DNA from: a phage
Assembly (NCBI GenBank): GCA_032691205.1
Contig: GCA_032691205.1_4541.1
Strand: one strand, 5' to 3'
Length of the DNA: 64,000 nt
The position numbers and the translations under genes were made by a program. The notes below the pieces were generated by a model, which was given only the letters and a program-made list of their open reading frames with translations, searched no databases and had not been told where the DNA came from. This document shows, piece by piece, positions 17,281 to 54,811 of the stretch (the first letter of the stretch is position 1; each line of letters opens with the position of its first letter).

Positions 17281-17835
17281 TTAGTTCCAACTAATAATGA
17301 TGTGTTTGATAATCCCAAAAATACTGTGCTCTGCGGTTGCCAATGTTACATCCAAACCTTTTGCACGTAGTATTGTAGCTACAACATTTGCCCCTCTTTT
17401 CTGTTCACTTATCTGTTCATAAGAAGAAGGGTTATTGCACAAACCAAAACTGGAAGGTTCAAAGTATTTTTCAAACTTCCCTTGTTCCGCACAATCTTCA
17501 ATCTCTAATAGAACGGCGTCTACCATTTCAGTAAAATGGGAATTTGCTTGCAGTGCTTTATTACGCAGTTTATCACGTAAACTTCCCGTAGATTCTTCCT
17601 GCTCTTCTGTCTGTCCCTCTTCACAGAAAGGATGAAGTTCAGCCCAGTCCCAAGCATCTCCTTCTAAAGCAAATGGAGTGTTGTAATTGAAGAAAGTGCA
17701 GCGCGGATATTCCCCGTTGAAAGAATCTTTCAGCAGAATATATTTCTTACCATTTGCATGGAAGAGTTCTCCTTTGATAACCTTACCTACAAGGATATCG
17801 CTGTTAGTGGAACGGGTGCAAATAAACTTTTTCAT
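17281..17835 (-). CDS. hypothetical protein (184 aa)
   Basis: ORF track. Confidence 0.55.
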   Translation of the reverse strand: MKKFICTRSTNSDILVGKVIKGELFHANGKKYILLKDSFNGEYPRCTFFNYNTPFALEGDAWDWAELHPFCEEGQTEEQEESTGSLRDKLRNKALQANSHFTEMVDAVLLEIEDCAEQGKFEKYFEPSSFGLCNNPSSYEQISEQKRGANVVATILRAKGLDVTLATAEHSIFGIIKHIIISWN

Positions 17836-26645: not shown

Positions 26646-26985
26646 GACAATCTCCTCTCATCGTTAGCCATCTTTCATGGCAATCATCAATCACCAACAT
26701 CATACGATCAATCTTAAGGAATTACAATCGAATTATCATAGGGGATTCCTATCAATTATCCCATATATACCGATTATTTTTGACACCCCCACTCTTGTAT
26801 AAAAAGTAACCCAAAATATCTACGGGGAGAGATTATTTCGACACACCCTGTTTCATGGCAATCATGGCAAGAATATCTAATAGAATCAATATGATATGGC
26901 AAAAATCATGGCGCATACGTAAGAAGTGCTTAACGCGAATTTTCGGGCCGTCAGGTCCACGCAGCGACAATTCCCAAATATCATG

Positions 26986-27008
26986 CGAATGAGAATAATT
27001 ATCATTCG
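26986..27008. promoter_or_regulatory. Fur-box-like palindrome (candidate operator)
   Basis: cgaatgagaataattatcattcg, near-palindromic. Confidence 0.3.
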
Positions 27009-27338
27009 TATTCAATGACTTATGCAAGGCTCATGCCAACATAGCGACAAGGTGGGCCACCTGATTATAAATCACACAAACACTTATTTATCAATGGCTT
27101 GGCAACTTCATCATATGACGGAACAATGTCAACTGATCCCGCTCATGACAAGCAGACTATTATTTATATGAGAATGATTATTATTTAAACGTTTATTAAC
27201 ATAAAAACTAAAATAAATCAAGATTATTCTGATTTTATTTACGTTTAAGAGAAGGTGCTCAACATATCGCGTAGCGATAGTATTCGCCCCCAAAATTATT
27301 GACTTTTATTCTATTATGTGCATAGTGTGCAATGTATC

Positions 27339-27357
27339 GGAATGATGATAATCATCC
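27339..27357. promoter_or_regulatory. Fur-box-like palindrome (candidate operator)
   Basis: ggaatgatgataatcatcc. Confidence 0.3.
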
Positions 27358-27400
27358 TCCCATTGCCCCCATAATTATTGCCATGCTAATTGTTTCCTTA

Positions 27401-27423
27401 CATAATCATTACAATGATTATTG
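27401..27423. promoter_or_regulatory. inverted repeat ATAATCATT/AATGATTAT
   Basis: cataatcattacaatgattattg. Confidence 0.3.
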
Positions 27424-27901
27424 TTATTGCGCTAATGTTATGATCTTGGTAATTACATATAATGCTAATAATAAGCCAGCGCAATAAGTGTAAGCGTCAT
27501 TACGCTTGCAATTATTGCAAGCTACGCAGTAACAAGAAATAACCGTCACCGATGGTTATGATTGTTGGGGTGTAGTTGGCTTATTATTAGCTCGCTATGT
27601 GTCCGGCATAGCGTGCTAATGATGACTCTGTGAATGATTCGTTTTGTAATGATTTCATTCAGGCACTATTTTGCTAATAGTTATTATTTTAATGGTTTCG
27701 TTTGTTATTGTTCGTTAGTTGGTTGTTTTGTCGTGTTATCGTTATCTTGCTTAGTATTCATCATGGTTCGATTGTTTGTCGTTATCAATCATCTTGCTAT
27801 TATTCCTTTGATTATGATTAGTTTGCTTATTGTTTTATGTTGTTTGTTGGTTAGTTGTTGCGAACTATTATCAACATTATAATTATGCGCTTATATTGCA
27901 T

Positions 27902-27937
27902 AGATAATCATGGGTAGATGATAATGGTTATCATTGC
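27902..27937. promoter_or_regulatory. tandem Fur-box-like sites
   Basis: agataatcatgggtagatgataatggttatcattgc. Confidence 0.3.
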
Positions 27938-28142
27938 ACTAGAAAGGAGGTAAAAGGGTGTTTTTGATGGTTTGTTGTTGGTTGTTGATCGATTTTAACC
28001 GCTCTAAATGGCTCTCTAACAGCCTGTAACCCTGGGAGGTATGGTTATTCGTTTGCTGGTTGATTAGCTCGATACCGCAATTTATTCAGTTTTGTTCTGT
28101 GTCGGTTTTCCATAGGCGGAATCTATCAACATTGTTCGGGGC

Positions 28143-28169
28143 AAAAAGAAAGGGCGCTCGGTGCGCCCC
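28143..28169 (-). terminator. rho-independent terminator (minus strand)
   Basis: gggcgctcggtgcgccc hairpin; U-rich tract on minus strand. Confidence 0.6.
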
Positions 28170-28184
28170 TTGTTTTGTTGTCGA

Positions 28185-38681: not shown

Positions 38682-38738
38682 GCGGCACCATTGCCGCGCT
38701 ACGTGGTAAATATTATGCCGCCACCTGGCGAACGTCAA
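38682..38738 (-). promoter_or_regulatory. PeSL-like cassette (hairpin gcggcaccattgccgc; TTGACG N17 TAATAT)
   Basis: -35 at 38733-38738. Confidence 0.6.
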
Positions 38739-38847
38739 CCACTTTTTCAATCTTTTTTATTTTCTTTTTGCTTGCTATATATAAAGGAAAGGGTTATCAT
38801 CTTTCTACCGCGCCAACCAGGGCGCACAACAAAGAAAGGGCGACACC

Positions 38848-39114
38848 ATGACAAATACTACATTACATCTTATGCACTCATTGGGCTGGCAAGGCGGCAC
38901 GGTGCACCAGGTAGCAAGCGCAACGGGCTTAAAGGTTGAAACCGTTCTCAACCTATCAGATTATAAGGTCGAGGATAGTTATCAATTACAAAGTTACACG
39001 GGCGGTTTTACCTGGGCGCGTGAAGGTGGGAAAGAAAGCAATATACCACATTGGGGAAAAGGTGATATTCATTTTTGGCTAGGTGTCCTGACCTGGCAAG
39101 AAAACAAAAAATAA
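38848..39114 (+). CDS. hypothetical protein (88 aa)
   Basis: ORF track; RBS AAGGG; isolated plus-strand ORF between minus blocks. Confidence 0.4.
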   Translation: MTNTTLHLMHSLGWQGGTVHQVASATGLKVETVLNLSDYKVEDSYQLQSYTGGFTWAREGGKESNIPHWGKGDIHFWLGVLTWQENKK

Positions 39115-39116
39115 TC

Positions 39117-39145
39117 TTGACAAGCCCAGGGATAGGGCTTATACT
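39117..39145 (+). promoter_or_regulatory. consensus sigma70 promoter TTGACA N17 TATACT
   Basis: Exact -35 hexamer; 17-nt spacer; -10 TATACT. Confidence 0.6.
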
Positions 39146-39151
39146 GTTTTA

Positions 39152-39370
39152 CATACAGAAGAGGAAGCGCCACCCCACGGCGTAAAGGCGGGGCTAACAT
39201 ACCAGGGGCACTGGTTGGAAGGTTGATCGCCGGTAGGCTGGGCGCTATATATTTGTAAAGAAATGTAAAGATAAAATAATCGCTTGCTTTCCTGGCTGGA
39301 TCTGTTATTCTTATTACATGGCGAGGGGACACGGGAGCGCGAGACAAACACCGCCCCTGCGCGTCATTCT
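39152..39370 (+). ncRNA. candidate structured small RNA (GC-rich island downstream of promoter)
   Basis: GC-rich self-complementary segments (gcgccacc..ggcgc; gaggggac..cgcccctgcgcg) with no convincing ORF. Confidence 0.3.
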
Positions 39371-39394
39371 CTAAATGAGAATGATTATCATTTA
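39365..39394. promoter_or_regulatory. palindrome CATTCTC-taaa-TGAGAATG plus Fur-box-like AATGATTATCATT
   Basis: 16 of 19 positions match the Fur-box consensus as I recall it. Confidence 0.3.
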
Positions 39395-39434
39395 CCTTAT
39401 CAAATAAGAATAAATCTCATTTATAAACTTAAAT

Positions 39435-39478
39435 GCGAATCATTATCATTTGCATTTCCATATGAGAACTCTTCTCAT
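39435..39478. promoter_or_regulatory. Fur-box-like site and ATGAGAA-ctc-TTCTCAT palindrome
   Basis: gcgaatcattatcatttgc ... atgagaactcttctcat. Confidence 0.3.
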
Positions 39479-39501
39479 TCTCACCTGCATAAAAATTTTT
39501 G

Positions 39502-39544
39502 TAAACTTTAAATTTTGCTTTTGTACTTTCATTTTTGTAAAAGC
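39502..39544. repeat. direct repeat copy 1 (about 43 bp)
   Basis: taaactttaaattttgcttttgtactttcatttttgtaaaagc. Confidence 0.55.
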
Positions 39545-39639
39545 AAAAAAACTTTAAATACTGTGGGCGCGCAAAATTTTTAAAATTTTCCTTGACTTTT
39601 GAGTTTTGTTTTGTATCTAACATTTTAAGATAATTTTCC

Positions 39640-39679
39640 TAAACTTTAAATTTTGGTTTTCAACTTTCACTTTTGTAAA
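39640..39679. repeat. direct repeat copy 2
   Basis: taaactttaaattttggttttcaactttcacttttgtaaa. Confidence 0.55.
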
Positions 39680-39921
39680 TTCTTAAAAAGTTTAAATAAT
39701 TTGAGGGATTTTTGAGATAATGGATAGTGGGAATTTGATATAACCTTTAATCTTATTAGTAGACCTTCAGGAACCCACCTAGATCGAATCCTAGTGATGC
39801 AAACTGAAAAAGATAAGTGTTTGTATAGGACAAAATAACAGGCTCTCTACGGTGCTGTAGGAGCCTTATTTCTGTGCTACAAAGTGACACCTTTGTTCTA
39901 AAAATGAAAAAAGTTAAAATA

Positions 39922-40464
39922 TCACAAATATCGTCTTTGCGGTATTTTGTCTGGGAAAAGTATTTCGATCAGTTTATTATGATATTTGCCTAAAAGATTC
40001 TGCCCTTTCCAGGTGGCAGGGTTTAGCACCCCTGGTTCATACATCCCCATTCCAATTCCGTAAACCTTATCGTAGGGGCTTGCTTCAACAAACGTTTTGT
40101 ATTGGTAAAGGTGTAAGTCTGCATACAAATCTGGATTCTGTACATATTTCAAGCATAAACCTCGCATAACAATACGCTCACGGTTCTCTTCCCATACATT
40201 GTTATCAAAATCCGACACTGCCCTACCCATACGTTTGTAATAAGCTTGGATCTTCTCATCTTTCCGTATCAAACTATGAGTCAGAATAGCCTGTGCAGTG
40301 TTGTGGTCATTAAAAAGCAAAGCTTTACGCCACATCATATATTGTTCGACACAATTAAATGTCTGATTGTAACCTGGTTCGGTTTCTGTAAAGGGTGCAA
40401 TATACCAATTACTAAAAACATCTTTATGTGAAAAGAAGAATACATAATCATCAGTTATTCGCAT
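39922..40464 (-). CDS. NADAR/YbiA-like (DUF1768) domain protein
   Basis: FFFSHKDVFSNWY, EQYMMWRKALLF, KRMGRAVSDFDNNVWE and EASPYDKVYGIG match the NADAR pattern as I recall it. Confidence 0.65.
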   Translation of the reverse strand: MRITDDYVFFFSHKDVFSNWYIAPFTETEPGYNQTFNCVEQYMMWRKALLFNDHNTAQAILTHSLIRKDEKIQAYYKRMGRAVSDFDNNVWEENRERIVMRGLCLKYVQNPDLYADLHLYQYKTFVEASPYDKVYGIGMGMYEPGVLNPATWKGQNLLGKYHNKLIEILFPDKIPQRRYL

Positions 40465-40675: not shown

Positions 40676-41018
40676 AAACTGCGTCTGCGTCGATGAGTTT
40701 GTGTTTGTTGTTCCGCATGTAGTCTAAGATAAGTAGACGTTTATTGTATCTGGAGAGATTATGACCCTCTTTTCCGCCATAGTCAAAATATTTTGCAAGA
40801 TCTTTACACTCAAACAAAATCAGTTCGGGAGTTTCTTCACACTGGTCTGTCTGGTACACTTGACGAATGATCATGTATACATCGTCGTCTTCCGCTAAAT
40901 GCTCTACTGGTCCACATCCAGCAGGAACAAATTCATAGTCCCATCTGATCAGATGTTTCTCTACTGCTTCAAAGAAGTCCATTCTTTCGTTGCGCATAAT
41001 TTGAACGTCAACTAACAT
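40653..41018 (-). CDS. hypothetical protein (121 aa)
   Basis: ORF track. Confidence 0.55.
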   Translation of the reverse strand: MLVDVQIMRNERMDFFEAVEKHLIRWDYEFVPAGCGPVEHLAEDDDVYMIIRQVYQTDQCEETPELILFECKDLAKYFDYGGKEGHNLSRYNKRLLILDYMRNNKHKLIDADAVYGYWWMD

Positions 41019-42472
41019 GTTTCCTCCTCTCTCATTATTCCACCTGCTTGGTTGATAGCACTTAAGACGATAGCCAAATCCTCGCGCAGGAAGGTTTCAC
41101 TATGACCATCTTTCATGTGCAAGCGTTCTACACAGCCAATAGACGGTAGAATCTGATCAGTCTTAGACTTTAGCTTACTCTCTAACGCCCTGCAAGCTTG
41201 GTAGGACGGCAGATCGAACAATGCTATACGGCGCATAGAGTAATTGTTGTTTGCATTCTGCCCTTTGATCCTGATATCACTGTCCTTTGCAATCCCCAAC
41301 TTGTAAGCTCCCGTGTCTTCTCCGTACTCATCAAGAATAATATTGATGTAAAATTCTTGCATATTTCTGTTCTTACAGCCTGGACAACCTTTCCCATTGA
41401 GATAATCGGTAGGTGTGATCGTTTGCTCTCCATGCTCCCTACATAGATATTTAAACTTGCTGTTATTGCTTACCTTATCAATGAATCCTATAAATTGATC
41501 CCCTCGTTCCTGGCAAGCTTTGGTCATACGGTAGGCCCATTGTTCAGGAGTGTAATGATAATATTTAGAACAACGGCAAGGAAGGCCACCCCTTTTCAAA
41601 TGACTCATCTTCATCTCAAATTTATTATCGCATAAGCCTTCTTTACAATAATCATCCTCTGCACATATAGGACATTCTACAGTCCAGTAAACCTGACGAC
41701 CTAATCTATCTACTCTATCGCTACGATAATATTTACGCTCTACATTATCAGGACAAGCTTTTATAAAATCTTCAACATGTTGTTTATCCTCCATTGTATT
41801 CCTTTGTTTCGTCATTTCTCTTTGACAACTGTAGCATCCAGTCCCTTGTTTAGCACTGTTTACAGTGGTAGTGCACCATTGACCATGAACCTTACACTCA
41901 CAAATCAACTTAGTGCGGGAACCGTTCCACGGTTCCACATAGCCTCTAACAATCCAGGGTTTTTCTTTATAAGCTTCTTCTACTTCTTCTTTATGTTTCT
42001 CCCATGCAATCGATGTTCTTTCTCTGTTTGCTTCTCCCATACACTTCCTGCATCCACTCCCGTTTTTCGCAGAAGATATAGAAGTAGACCTCCACTCCCC
42101 ATGTAAAGCACAACAACAAACCAGTTTAGTATTCCATCCTTTCCATTCTCCGTGCCATCCTGTAACAGTCCAAAACTTACCTGCCTGATTGTAAGTGGTT
42201 TGCACTTCTTCTTTATATTGCTCCCAGGTTTTTGATTTGTTTATAGATACTGCTTTACTTATAATCTCCCTACCGCATTCTGGACAACCCCTCCCTAGTT
42301 TAGCGGTATTTATGCTTGTTGTTTTCCATTCTCCATGCAGAGCACAGATGCATCTAAGTTTAGTTTTATTGCCGTTCCACGGCTCAATATAATCTACAAC
42401 AGTCCAAGACTTACCTTGATAAGCTTGTTTTATATCTGTTTTATATTGTTCCCAAGTGACTATTTTTGGCAC
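41012..42472 (-). CDS. zinc-ribbon tandem-repeat protein with C-terminal T5orf172/GIY-YIG-like domain (putative)
   Basis: Three-plus repeats of W.V..Y.EPWNG..TKL.C.C..HGEW.TT....AK.G.GC..C; C-terminus FYINIILDEYGEDTGAYKLGIAKDSDIR. Confidence 0.6.
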   Translation of the reverse strand: MPKIVTWEQYKTDIKQAYQGKSWTVVDYIEPWNGNKTKLRCICALHGEWKTTSINTAKLGRGCPECGREIISKAVSINKSKTWEQYKEEVQTTYNQAGKFWTVTGWHGEWKGWNTKLVCCCALHGEWRSTSISSAKNGSGCRKCMGEANRERTSIAWEKHKEEVEEAYKEKPWIVRGYVEPWNGSRTKLICECKVHGQWCTTTVNSAKQGTGCYSCQREMTKQRNTMEDKQHVEDFIKACPDNVERKYYRSDRVDRLGRQVYWTVECPICAEDDYCKEGLCDNKFEMKMSHLKRGGLPCRCSKYYHYTPEQWAYRMTKACQERGDQFIGFIDKVSNNSKFKYLCREHGEQTITPTDYLNGKGCPGCKNRNMQEFYINIILDEYGEDTGAYKLGIAKDSDIRIKGQNANNNYSMRRIALFDLPSYQACRALESKLKSKTDQILPSIGCVERLHMKDGHSETFLREDLAIVLSAINQAGGIMREEETC

Positions 42473-52180: not shown

Positions 52181-54811
52181 GTGTCTACACAATTGAGTTT
52201 TACACCTACTGATGAACAATACGCTATTGAAAGCGGGTATAAAGAAAATCGTTTCGTTACAATTCAAGCTAAATCTGGATCAGGTAAAACGTCAACACTG
52301 TATATGTTGGCTAATGGCACAAATGATAGTATTCTATATTTGGCATTTAACAAAAGTATGGCAGAGGAAGCTCGACGTAAAATGCCGCCCAATGTTATGT
52401 GCCGAACGCTACATTCAATCTGTTACCAACGTCTTCCACAAAACCTTCGACACAAATTGTCTCGTCCAGAAGGTCAATATGTTAACGTAGCTGGAACTGG
52501 TAGTGAGATTGCCAAAAAATTCAAGATTCAGAATTTGATTGATAAGAATGGTAAAGTGCTACTGACTCGTGCAATGATCGGGTTAATGGTAAAACAAACT
52601 TTAGCTAAATATGAGTTTTCTGACGATGAACATATTGGACATAAACATTTTCCTAAAGTGCATATGTCAGATCTTAAACGTAAGAACATCAACGAACAAA
52701 AACTTATTAACGAAGTTGTTAAATATGCGAAGCAACTTTGGCGTGAGCGTATTGATCCTAAATCAGAAACCATTATGACTCATGACACCTATGTGAAACT
52801 CTTTGAATTGAGTAAAGAAGATTTAGGATACGATATTATTTTTGGAGATGAATTCCAGGATGTTAACCCTGCATTCCTGTCTATCCTTCGCAATGCTAAA
52901 TCGGCTAAACGTATTGTTGTTGTGGGTGATGAGTTTCAGTGTGTGTCTGAGAACACTTTGCTTAACACTGAACAAGGGAAAGTTTTAATGAAAGATCTTC
53001 AGGTCGGGGATAAAGTAGAGTCTTACTTAAACGGTAAAGTGGTGTTTAAAACAGTCACAAACAAAACTTTATCTACTCGAACAGAAGGCAGAAACATTAT
53101 TACATCCAAAGGGAATACGTTAGACATGACTCACAATCATCGCATATGGGCTTCTTCTTACACTTTAAAAGAAGACCAAATGATTGTTTACCTTATGTGG
53201 AGAAAAGATTTAGGCTTTCGTGTAGGAATTACTAACAAATTCGATGATAAAGAAGGTTTTTCTAAACTGGGGCAACGTACACGTTCTGAAAAAGCACAGA
53301 AATTGTGGGTGTTGGATATTGTTGAAAACCGTGAAGCTGCTATGGAAAAAGAAATGGCATACAGTTTACAATATGGCATTCCTACTTGTGTATTTGAAGC
53401 AAGTTCACGCAGTATTAATCAAGAAAGGGTCAATAACATTTTTGAACAATTCGGACAAAACGGTTTTAAACTTTTAGAGGATAAAGATTATCATTTTGAC
53501 TATCCTCATTGGCACAGTATTAACTCTTCAACAGAGAATCGCAAAATGCTTACTGTCTCACTGCGTGCTCAAGGTAAGAAAGGGACTGAGGTGCACTTTG
53601 AATGGACAGAAGAAGAGATGCAGATTTTCGATACTTTGGTAGAGGCAGGTGTTAAGATAAGTAATGCTAAAAATGCAGGTCGTTTCCGTGTTCGTAAGTA
53701 TTTTGCATCTTATAGTGAAGCTTTAACTTTCGCAGAAGAAATTTTAACTATTATTCCTTTCGCCTCTTTGAAAGAGTCTATGGCATCTGTAGATGGTGTA
53801 AAGTATAACTTAATACCTGCCGCAGGATTGTTTAAAGGAATGTCTGTGCTTGTTAAAAACGGGGATACTGTTGTTGCTGAAGAGATTGTAGAGATTGAAG
53901 ATACTCAAGGTTTCTACTATGATGTAGAGATTGAAGATACTGCAAACTTCTTTGGGAATAACATTTTAAGTCATAATTGTATCTACCAGTTCCGAGGTAG
54001 TTCTAATATGATGGTTGAGACTGCCACATATGGGGTTGAGTTGCCTCTGACAGCTTGTTTTCGCTTTGGTCCTAAAGTTGCGGACATTGCTAATGCGATC
54101 CTTTCTGATCGCTCACCTCTGAAGCATCCGCTGGTAGGGAAAGGTTATGATACTGTCACTGGAAGTTTTCATTCTGATGTGGTAGATTATAGTAAACCTT
54201 ACACCATTATTTTCCGTAAGAATTTGACCCTGTTGCTCGAAGCTATGGATCGAATCGCTAACGGAGAAGAGATTATTATTAACGTAGATACCAAAGATTT
54301 CATTTCTATGGTTGATAGTGTTAATGCTTTACGTAGAGGTGATTTGGACAAAGTTAAGCATGAGACAGTTCTACCTTACACTTCTTGGGAAGAATTTGTA
54401 GAGTGTGCAGAATCAGATCCTGATGCAAAACGACTTTTAAACATCGTTGTTTCTGGTAAAGCTAATAATATTGCATACACTTTACGTATGCACCGTAACT
54501 CTCCAACGGCTAAAGTTACTTTAACTACAGCCCACAAATCAAAAGGTTTGGAATGGGATCAGGTTATTGTTGCAAATGACTTCCCTTCTAATTATGATAA
54601 GAAGGGTGAGTGGGTAGGTCTTGAAGAATCAGAACGAAATCTTCTGTATGTTGCACATACACGTTGTATTAAATGTCTGCAATGGAACCGAACTGTTCAA
54701 GAGATTTTAGACATGCATCGTTTAGGTAAGAGCACGGCTCCTGTATCTGAAGAAGATAAGCTTATAGCTGCCCTTGCTCGTAAGATTAATCAAATCAGAG
54801 AGGATCGTTAA
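52181..54811 (+). CDS. UvrD/Rep-like SF1 helicase interrupted by an intein
   Basis: Walker A SGSGKTST; VVGDEFQ then intein then CIYQFRGSS (motif III); TAHKSKGLEWD; YVAHTRC. Confidence 0.8.
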   Translation: MSTQLSFTPTDEQYAIESGYKENRFVTIQAKSGSGKTSTLYMLANGTNDSILYLAFNKSMAEEARRKMPPNVMCRTLHSICYQRLPQNLRHKLSRPEGQYVNVAGTGSEIAKKFKIQNLIDKNGKVLLTRAMIGLMVKQTLAKYEFSDDEHIGHKHFPKVHMSDLKRKNINEQKLINEVVKYAKQLWRERIDPKSETIMTHDTYVKLFELSKEDLGYDIIFGDEFQDVNPAFLSILRNAKSAKRIVVVGDEFQCVSENTLLNTEQGKVLMKDLQVGDKVESYLNGKVVFKTVTNKTLSTRTEGRNIITSKGNTLDMTHNHRIWASSYTLKEDQMIVYLMWRKDLGFRVGITNKFDDKEGFSKLGQRTRSEKAQKLWVLDIVENREAAMEKEMAYSLQYGIPTCVFEASSRSINQERVNNIFEQFGQNGFKLLEDKDYHFDYPHWHSINSSTENRKMLTVSLRAQGKKGTEVHFEWTEEEMQIFDTLVEAGVKISNAKNAGRFRVRKYFASYSEALTFAEEILTIIPFASLKESMASVDGVKYNLIPAAGLFKGMSVLVKNGDTVVAEEIVEIEDTQGFYYDVEIEDTANFFGNNILSHNCIYQFRGSSNMMVETATYGVELPLTACFRFGPKVADIANAILSDRSPLKHPLVGKGYDTVTGSFHSDVVDYSKPYTIIFRKNLTLLLEAMDRIANGEEIIINVDTKDFISMVDSVNALRRGDLDKVKHETVLPYTSWEEFVECAESDPDAKRLLNIVVSGKANNIAYTLRMHRNSPTAKVTLTTAHKSKGLEWDQVIVANDFPSNYDKKGEWVGLEESERNLLYVAHTRCIKCLQWNRTVQEILDMHRLGKSTAPVSEEDKLIAALARKINQIREDR
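52940..53977 (+). other. intein (346 aa) within helicase motif III, possibly with a homing-endonuclease domain
   Basis: Starts Cys (CVSENTLL), internal TLDMTHNH block, ends ...NNILSHN followed by Cys. Confidence 0.7.

Follow-up and report, generated by a model that had tools for sequence, protein, structure and literature searches.

In phage T5, paired DnaA boxes lie in large inverted repeats within the terminal repeat, and a comparative T5 study catalogues the palindromes and repeats of this region as conserved and of unknown function; DnaA is discussed there, and neither Fur nor LexA is mentioned for the region (10.1101/866236). In E. coli, native Fur sites overlap, 6 bp apart, and lie over the promoter, and the fepA-fes, fepD-entS and fepB-entC regions are Fur-regulated promoters of the enterobactin cluster (PMC2189734). 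Here we analyse positions 39115-39921 of a 64,000-nucleotide stretch of phage DNA (contig GCA_032691205.1_4541.1; the whole stretch is called the window). Judged from its sequence, this region is a conserved noncoding control locus whose function we infer, and it combines a structured RNA, here called module A, with a strictly phased array of Fur-type palindromes. Its parts are of kinds already known, namely sigma-70 promoters, Fur-like boxes and AT-rich repeats. The module A RNA family and the strict 29-bp phasing of the boxes appear to be undescribed in the searchable literature, and so do the conserved coupling of RNA and array across two myovirus subfamilies and the sharing of the array with the T5 injection-stop region. 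Literature searches on phage Fur decoys, the phAPEC8 transcriptome and the Vequintavirinae origin returned nothing on the locus, and no report on it, or on Fur sites in T5-like or rV5-like phages, was found.

The features predicted within the locus, from left to right, are the following.

39117-39145, plus strand: promoter P1, TTGACA-N17-TATACT, with an 11/12 consensus match, conserved across lineages
39164-39236, plus strand: module A, a conserved structured RNA of about 73 nt, supported by covariation and a covariance model
39255-39269, plus strand: CpxR-type box GTAAAGAAATGTAAA, an exact GTAAA-N5-GTAAA just upstream of P2
39284-39311, plus strand: putative promoter P2, TTGCTT-N16-TATTCT, of weak consensus and conserved position (GCTTG ... 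TATnnT)
about 39318-39372, plus strand: module B, a G-rich leader whose outer stem AUGGCG/CGUCAU is 5'-terminal; CACC-N5-TG is invariant
39373-39480, no strand assigned: four Fur-type 21-bp palindromes, starting at 39373, 39402, 39431 and 39460, consensus AAATGAGAATnATTCTCATTT
39494-39703, no strand assigned: AT-rich direct-repeat block of about 210 bp, with a 72-nt repeat twice, a 34-nt repeat three times and AAAAnTTTAAATA twice
about 39827-39875, no strand assigned: bidirectional intrinsic terminator, hairpin AGGCTCTCTACGGTGCTGTAGGAGCCT with T-runs on both strands

On its sequence matches the window is a Phapecoctavirus of the phAPEC8-like kind, a large virulent E. coli phage. A megablast search with 38800-40000 matched 147 phage records, the best being Phapecoctavirus genomes of about 150 kb (phAPEC8-like, Stephanstirmvirinae) with 94-98% identity over the full length. 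A sensitive blastn search with 39115-39921 matched 383 phage records. Close relatives align across the entire region and Justusliebigvirus over its first 58%. The Vequintavirinae, though otherwise widely different, align only over about 39151-39420, at 67-77% identity; these are PVP-SE1, CR9 and phages of Pectobacterium, Klebsiella, Serratia, Enterobacter and Erwinia. It is at the predicted P1 start site that their similarity begins. The locus is intergenic or unannotated in PVP-SE1, rV5, CR9, Seu621 and Kashira.

The common plan was read from alignment A1 and a 24-sequence alignment, and further loci came from pattern scans of IMG/VR and metagenomes, giving about 40 distinct module A sequences in total. 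The shared order is P1, whose spacer contains or adjoins a GC hairpin, then module A, TTTGTAAAGAAnTGTAAAGA, GCTTG...TATnnT (P2), module B and the palindromes, the first of which is strongly conserved across the alignments and is followed by more. Module A and the box array occur together in Stephanstirmvirinae, in most Vequintavirinae and in relatives from metagenomes. Between module A and the end of the next minus-strand gene there are about 700-1100 nt in all lineages, with no plus-strand gene in this interval. In rV5 proper (loci L005, L016, L017 and L037) there is no module A, and its place is taken by a further module-B-like unit that has a palindrome of its own; module-B-like units and boxes are kept. 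These rV5-type Vequintavirus loci have the series promoter, module-B-like leader (GGGAGACAAnCACC), Fur-type box twice in tandem.

Modules A and B and the box array had no match in 5,426 E. coli genomes, and a host-derived sequence was rejected on these grounds. Plasmid matches were single chance or Fur-like sites, plus CP057073.1. This E. coli 'plasmid' of 137,565 bp, which is rV5-like in size, matches the box array at 17389-17460, and is probably a Vequintavirus genome deposited as a plasmid. There are no additional copies of module A or B elsewhere in the window.

A preliminary description of the region had noted about 200 nt of GC-rich DNA following the promoter. The GC enrichment is real, at 59% in 39150-39249 compared with about 39% around it, but the tract is not continuous, being divided into two modules by an AT-rich promoter region at 39250-39315. 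The fold that RNAalifold gives for module A is closed by an invariant helix, CGGCG/CGCCG, and contains a long irregular hairpin; in addition, the 5' C-run probably forms a pseudoknot, CCC(C)/GGG(G), with the G-run inside the hairpin. In 18 module A sequences 96.9% of cells are paired, as against 22-53% with the 3' partners slid; six pairs are changed on both sides, and none of 500 shuffles reaches the observed paired percentage or covariation score. With 26 sequences the figures are 91.6% and 26-51%, pair 37-62 being AU in 16 and GC in 10, and pseudoknot pair 14-29 being CG in 19 and AU in 6. Covariation folding from related phages had been suggested as a check, and its outcome is that the structure of module A is kept by compensatory changes. 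The closing helix is neither supported nor refuted by covariation, because it never varies, and it might face competition from another, local hairpin, CGCC/GGCG.

A covariance model built for module A finds exactly one match in the window (39164-39236, 88.7 bits, E = 3e-18), finds none in rV5 proper or T5-like loci, and recovers diverged second copies, which had been left out of the model, at about 40 bits. Diverged versions lie in Pectobacterium phage P7_Pc (L007, 1706-1777) and in loci L029 (6302-6373) and L067 (1696-1767). They have a different terminal hairpin and keep a CCA/UGG pseudoknot pairing. In L007 and L029 the diverged version is a second copy beside a canonical one, and the L007 copy has its own TTGACA promoter. 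The Rfam search proposed as a possible identification matched no family: the whole window had no hit at the gathering threshold, 38700-40000 at E<=10 had chance-level hits only and none on modules A or B, and a known RNA family was rejected for both modules. Nothing similar to module A was found in the E. coli genomes. Module A shows the generic marks of a structured RNA, with compensatory pairs, location on the promoter strand and no conserved frame, and it forms a new structured RNA family, represented by the roughly 40 distinct sequences.

The preliminary description reported no open reading frame (ORF) here. Minus-strand ORFs of 70 and 92 amino acids (aa) do exist, and some GenBank records annotate one, but no frame is conserved even between close relatives. 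No minus-strand frame stays open across lineages relative to a fixed anchor: frame 0 has 101 codons in one Mydovirus-like contig, 44 in a close relative and 3-23 in several lineages, and near-identical phages differ by 1-nt indels in the hairpin loop. The plus strand is purine-rich, and the minus-strand open frames are an artefact of this. A protein-coding gene was rejected, since no reading frame is open and conserved across the homologues. Annotated relatives have a homologous stretch without a coding sequence (CDS), or with sporadic short ones only; one relative's record marks a repeat_region at the locus, and another a rho-independent terminator near its right end. A degenerate pseudogene, which had been named beforehand as a refuting outcome, or an unannotated small minus-strand protein gene, would be extremely unlikely. 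It could draw on the two ORFs and the CDS annotated in some records, and on the fact that most module A length classes differ by multiples of 3, but the unequal frames in close relatives, with stops within 3-23 codons elsewhere, and the 1-nt indels speak against it, and the substitutions in the alignments are compensatory for base pairing.

Module B is covarying in its outer stem. This stem starts at about +2 of the P2 transcript and is 88% paired, compared with 23-50% in slid controls; three pairs are changed on both sides. Its frequent G-U pairs would be C-A mismatches on the other strand, and the plus strand is therefore the folded one. RNAalifold returned no consensus structure for module B, and a consensus fold was dropped, the inner helix registers differing between lineages. 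The 3' arm of the stem can alternatively pair into the first palindrome, and module B folded together with this first box gives z = -3.8.

The TTGACA-N17-TATACT promoter described directly after the 38848-39114 gene is present as P1 and is conserved in relatives. Sites with at least an 11/12 promoter match number 10 in the window, as against 3.1 in shuffles. Within the P1 spacer is a terminator-like GC hairpin (39122-39140), which stays across lineages while its sequence changes, and which could double as a terminator for the 38848-39114 gene. P2 is weak by consensus and below the scan threshold, and we therefore regard it as a putative promoter, supported by positional conservation: GCTTG is invariant, and a -10-like TATTCT, TATTAT, TATATT or TACTAT lies at a constant distance from it (alignments A1 and modAB). 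Some lineages have a third rightward promoter directly after the boxes, making up to three in tandem.

The box just upstream of P2 has the form GTAAA-N5-GTAAA, which we take to be the CpxR consensus. There are two exact sites of this form in the window, compared with 0.35 expected. In about 30 of the 41 unique related loci the box keeps a constant distance of +22 to the end of module A, and across them the pentamers are invariant and the 5-nt spacer varies. Invariant pentamers with a free spacer are the signature of a bipartite protein site, and by its motif the box is a candidate CpxR site. In E. coli the motif occurs between cpxR and cpxP as GTAAAACAACGTAAA, at a distance of 16 nt from the -35 of cpxP. 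The other exact GTAAAGAAATGTAAA of the window is at 28710-28696 on the minus strand, 18 nt upstream of a TTGACA-N17-TATATT promoter (28677-28649, minus strand) that reads into the gene at 28604-28185, a box-promoter spacing that resembles E. coli cpxP.

The hairpin at about 39827-39875 ends the leftward NADAR operon, and is also the first good stop for P1 and P2 transcripts, about 600-700 nt downstream of the modules. A simple terminator scan missed it, probably due to its stem bulge; the homologous position in phage ASO2A is annotated as a rho-independent terminator. No terminator was found between 39237 and about 39827 except weak AU hairpins formed by the boxes, and neither the window ORFs nor the related loci provide a plus-strand gene downstream for the transcript to express. 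The regulated small RNA proposed in the preliminary description is therefore well supported as an RNA, by conservation from the P1 start, covariation and its noncoding nature, but not as a simple terminated small RNA.

Two Fur-like boxes had been described. One of them, at 39377-39395, indeed matches the 19-bp Fur consensus GATAATGATAATCATTATC at 16/19 positions, and such matches number two in the window, compared with 0.08 expected. However, two is an undercount, as there are four 21-bp palindromes, whose start-to-start spacing is given by a repeat finder as 29, 29 and 29 bp. All four are TGAGAATnATTCTCA-like and have the sequence of a Fur box, or 7-1-7 inverted repeat. The perfect palindrome ATGAGAA-ctc-TTCTCAT, also described, is present and proves to be the fourth box of the array (39460). 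The 29-bp phase is kept in almost every lineage, and the array accompanies module A in nearly all of them, even those in which other sequence has come to lie between the two. Measured from module A, most lineages have the start of the array at +130 to +140, and one group of metagenomic loci has it at +376 to +517. On the minus strand a weak promoter-like site (39505-39477, a match of only 9/12) overlaps box 4.

The consensus AAATGAGAATnATTCTCATTT and a position weight matrix (PWM) were derived from 64 distinct boxes of related phage loci. The consensus has the 7-1-7 Fur box form, with G over T at one symmetric position (TGAGAAT vs TGATAAT). In a reciprocal test the phage-box PWM was scanned over 600-645 kb of E. 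coli K-12, a segment of 45 kb with 39 genes. Seven of the top eight hits, among them the first four, are in the three intergenic regions fepA-fes, fepD-entS and fepB-entC, together 726 bp of the 45 kb, and all other intergenic DNA in the segment scores far lower. Because the phage PWM recovers these Fur-regulated regions, the palindromes can be described as Fur-type operators at the motif level, and hence as candidate Fur sites. Strong boxes are also found elsewhere in the genome, at 26987, 27166, 27916 and 53476, so that with the array there are at least eight per genome. The box at 53476-53498 (AGAGGATAAAGATTATCATTT) is isolated, matches at 16/19 positions on the minus strand, and lies inside a rightward gene block. 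In an unrelated phage group, represented by three small IMG/VR contigs (L034, L035 and L039), a single Fur-type box AAATGAGAATGATTATCACTT overlaps the -35 of a TTGCAT-N17-TATAAT promoter at a gene end, which is the classical Fur-repression geometry.

The array extends beyond the myoviruses. T5-like phages match 39364-39461 at 72-85% identity over 55-110 bp (blastn). In Escherichia phage VEc33 (locus L014, 1480-1800) the match is in the large noncoding part of the terminal-repeat region, and adjoins pairs of TTATCCACA (DnaA boxes) and a ACTGTATATTTATACAGT palindrome, which is SOS-box or LexA-like. The phage-box PWM detects five to six boxes in the T5-like region, some of them 29 bp apart. Phage HildyBeyeler (locus L015, 1045-1620) has the same Fur-type palindromes in its noncoding terminal-repeat or injection-stop region.

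Beyond the palindromes, GC content falls to 19-26% in 39400-39700. The two 43-bp direct repeats of the preliminary description are present, but they are only the core of a 72-nt repeat (39494-39565 and 39632-39703, 82% identity), which is joined by a 34-nt family of three copies. The shorter repeats reported with them are also there, AAANTTTAAATA occurring twice in the window, both times in the AT-rich block. As this motif is found within the window only at the locus, it was rejected as a general phage promoter motif. Within Stephanstirmvirinae AAAAnTTTAAATA and AAACTTTAAATTTTGSTTTT are conserved and repeated, and in other lineages the corresponding place is occupied by different repeats, which are often GAAAAATTTTTC-like palindromic units and direct repeats of 35-70 nt. 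P1 and P2 face 39494-39703, an AT-rich stretch with direct repeats, an arrangement that would fit a transcription-activated or iteron origin, and the non-template strand of the modules is G-rich (GC skew +0.19 to +0.30).

The locus is flanked by two convergent genes, as described previously.

38848-39114, plus strand: 88-aa gene of unassigned function, matching phrog_19316, with no Pfam hit; its stop abuts P1
39922-40464, minus strand: downstream gene with a NADAR domain (PF08719, E = 8e-36)

Leftward genes occupy the window from about 46.4 kb down to about 9 kb, and the 88-aa gene and the noncoding locus form a small rightward island within this leftward early-gene block. The 38848-39114 gene is hypothetical in annotated relatives. 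Most related loci have a plus-strand gene in this place, which ends about 50 nt before module A and whose family varies with the lineage (phrog_19316, DUF7170 or none). The 39922-40464 gene is called 'GTP cyclohydrolase II' in several GenBank records; only the NADAR domain was matched, and the name is probably a carry-over from fused bacterial homologues. Further along, the minus-strand gene at 41012-42472 encodes a 486-aa protein that is hypothetical in relatives. It has several repeats of about 60 aa ending in CxxC (W..Y...W.V..Y.EPWNG..TKL.C.C..HGEW....S.AK.G.GC..C), followed by a distinct C-terminal domain. A search of the window found no tRNA or tmRNA genes.

Up to three promoters point into the AT-rich block and there is nothing to translate, and on this basis the functional output would be transcription of, or into, that block. 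We tentatively favour a structured noncoding RNA that is transcribed by the host polymerase into the AT-rich repeats and gated by Fur, in the manner of a transcription-activated origin. Early in infection, host RNA polymerase would start at P1 and P2 and produce a noncoding transcript of about 0.55-0.72 kb. Iron-loaded Fur on the phased array would act as a gate, by roadblock or occlusion, and set how much transcription reaches the AT-rich repeats. Transcription into the block would open or prime it, as at transcription-activated origins, and the structured, G-rich modules at the 5' side would either make the RNA more stable or help an RNA-DNA hybrid to form. Through the locus, a phage function acting in cis would in this way respond to the iron status of the host, and perhaps to Cpx envelope stress. 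An origin had already been suggested in the preliminary description, and the architecture fits, with promoters facing AT-rich, lineage-specific repeats; these repeats we liken to iterons, and count in favour of an origin.

Several observations weigh against such a Fur-gated origin. There are no DnaA (TTWTNCACA) or IHF (WATCAANNNNTTR) consensus sites in 39001-40000, cumulative GC skew has no turn at the locus and tracks gene orientation, and no recognisable initiator gene is adjacent. The folding energy of module A is unexceptional (z = -0.09). Relative to the P2 start the Fur-type boxes lie about 55-160 nt downstream, and relative to that of P1 about 220-330 nt, and they do not cover the -35, -10 or start of either; because they lie downstream of both promoters, classical Fur repression of a promoter is not suggested. 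The 26.6-28.2 kb region is an equally good candidate for an origin, and for Vequintavirus Bas54 it is a different intergenic region, of about 2 kb, that has been reported free of transposon insertions. That region was rejected as the equivalent of our locus, having, by comparison with the locus in the records of the related Bas57 and Bas58, the wrong size and the wrong flanking orientation; in these records the present locus is between leftward genes about 35 gene numbers lower (in the records' own numbering). The divergent gene junction at about 46.7 kb was also considered and dropped, as it has no large intergenic region or repeats. The region at 26646-28184 is a second ORF-free region (about 1.5 kb) in the same leftward block, with Fur-type boxes at 26987, 27166, 27215, about 27340 and 27916, and with a strongly G/T-rich asymmetric tract at 27690-27990.

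A stand-alone regulatory RNA is a possible, if somewhat unlikely, alternative. Module A, with or without B, would be cut from the P1/P2 transcript and would act in trans on host or phage targets or bind a protein; the Fur and CpxR sites would regulate its synthesis, and the AU-rich repeats would be parts of the same long RNA, for example as a sponge for an RNA-binding protein. This agrees with the strong conserved promoter, the structure kept by covariation, the highly conserved single-stranded purine-rich stretches GAAGAGGAA and GGAAGGUGGAU (alignments A2 and A5), and the tandem rightward promoters with nothing translatable downstream. The diverged second copy with its own promoter in some phages (P7_Pc, L029, L067) is also as expected for an RNA gene. 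Against this, no terminator follows either module until the distant one, the lack of Rfam or E. coli similarity means that no target or partner can be named, and rV5 proper does without module A yet keeps the module-B-like units and boxes. We consider it unlikely that the DNA itself is the active element, as a decoy or sensor for a host factor. Here the replicating phased Fur sites would titrate Fur and de-repress host iron uptake, which would then serve phage iron enzymes, the promoters and RNA being secondary; in a variant, Fur would be recruited to play an architectural part, for which the T5 injection-stop region may offer a parallel. The number of strong boxes per genome would suit a decoy, as would the presence of conserved and unexplained palindromes in T5 and the absence of a comparable array from the E. 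coli genomes. Box sequence and 29-bp phase are moreover conserved across phages of different enterobacterial hosts and unrelated T5-like phages, and a conserved host protein accounts for this better than a phage protein that co-evolves. However, the covarying RNA structure and the fixed order of promoter, RNA and boxes would be left unexplained, the titration capacity cannot be calculated from sequence, and G is preferred in the phage boxes to the T of the Fur consensus, so that a different protein is possible.

That protein might be encoded by the phage itself, in which case the palindromes and repeats would be its operators or iterons and the likeness to Fur coincidental. This we regard as very unlikely. 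A small plus-strand gene is always just upstream, the box consensus differs systematically from Fur at one symmetric position, and the downstream repeats are lineage-specific, all of which such an account would predict; but the upstream gene changes family (phrog_19316, DUF7170, none) while the box sequence is constant, T5-like phages have the boxes but not these genes, and the phage-derived PWM picks genuine Fur-regulated promoters. Type III antitoxin-like repeats, CRISPR-repeat mimics, a CsrA or Hfq sponge and likeness to the 16S 3' end were also considered and dropped, because the repeats are not arranged in tandem and lineages do not share the motifs. A broader proposal, which we think rather unlikely, is that rV5/phAPEC8-like myoviruses and T5-like siphoviruses carry, in their conserved noncoding regions, phased arrays of high-affinity Fur operators that either read host iron status and gate a cis step or titrate Fur as genomes multiply, the myovirus array being tied to a new pseudoknotted RNA family. 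The cis step would be origin firing and, in T5, perhaps the injection stop; titration would re-programme host iron uptake.

The noncoding regions of large virulent phages are almost never annotated, and this one is conserved more deeply than the surrounding genes. Should Fur bind the array, a strictly lytic phage would clearly have built a metal regulator of its host into its own programme, and the conserved T5 injection-stop palindromes would gain a testable candidate function. Fur binding would also affect the behaviour of therapeutic-candidate phages (relatives of phAPEC8, phi92, rV5 and PVP-SE1) in iron-poor infection sites. The module A family could be described and curated from the sequences at hand.

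The locus can finally be compared with described systems. With E. coli Fur operators (a 19-bp box, or the 7-1-7 inverted repeat TGATAATnATTATCA) it shares the palindromic motif class; it differs in that each phage site is a separate 21-bp palindrome, repeated with a strict 29-bp phase and located on the downstream side of the promoters, with a preference for G/C at symmetric position 4. CpxR-activated promoters of the cpxP type likewise have an exact GTAAA-N5-GTAAA upstream of a -35, but in the phages the distance from box to -35 varies by lineage from about 5 to 14 nt, as against 16 nt at cpxP, and the orientation of the box relative to the promoter is different. The T5 Repeat Region 3, or injection-stop region (iss), is similar in that it too belongs to a virulent enterobacterial phage, is large, noncoding and conserved, is rich in repeats and has the same palindromes. 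However, T5 has paired DnaA boxes, a LexA-like palindrome and a location in the terminal repeat, and no modules A and B; our locus has no DnaA boxes, and only the palindrome arrays are common to both. We know of no two-step injection in phAPEC8-like phages.

Fur-repressed small RNAs of the RyhB type also link a noncoding RNA to Fur sites, but there is no match in sequence or structure (Rfam), and the phage Fur sites are off the promoter, with no terminator adjacent. The put leader RNA of HK022 is, like module A, a structured RNA immediately downstream of an early promoter, but again there is no match in sequence or structure (Rfam), and there are no downstream genes to antiterminate into. In a comparison with transcription-activated origins (ori-lambda, the T7 primary origin, T4 oriF/oriG and ColE1 RNA II), the locus has no recognisable initiator and no GC-skew switch, and its palindromes resemble host Fur sites rather than sites for a phage initiator. 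What these origins have in common with the locus is promoters that read into AT-rich direct repeats and a G-rich structured transcript. At ori-lambda, four palindromic protein sites stand next to an AT-rich block, and the phage locus is similarly arranged.

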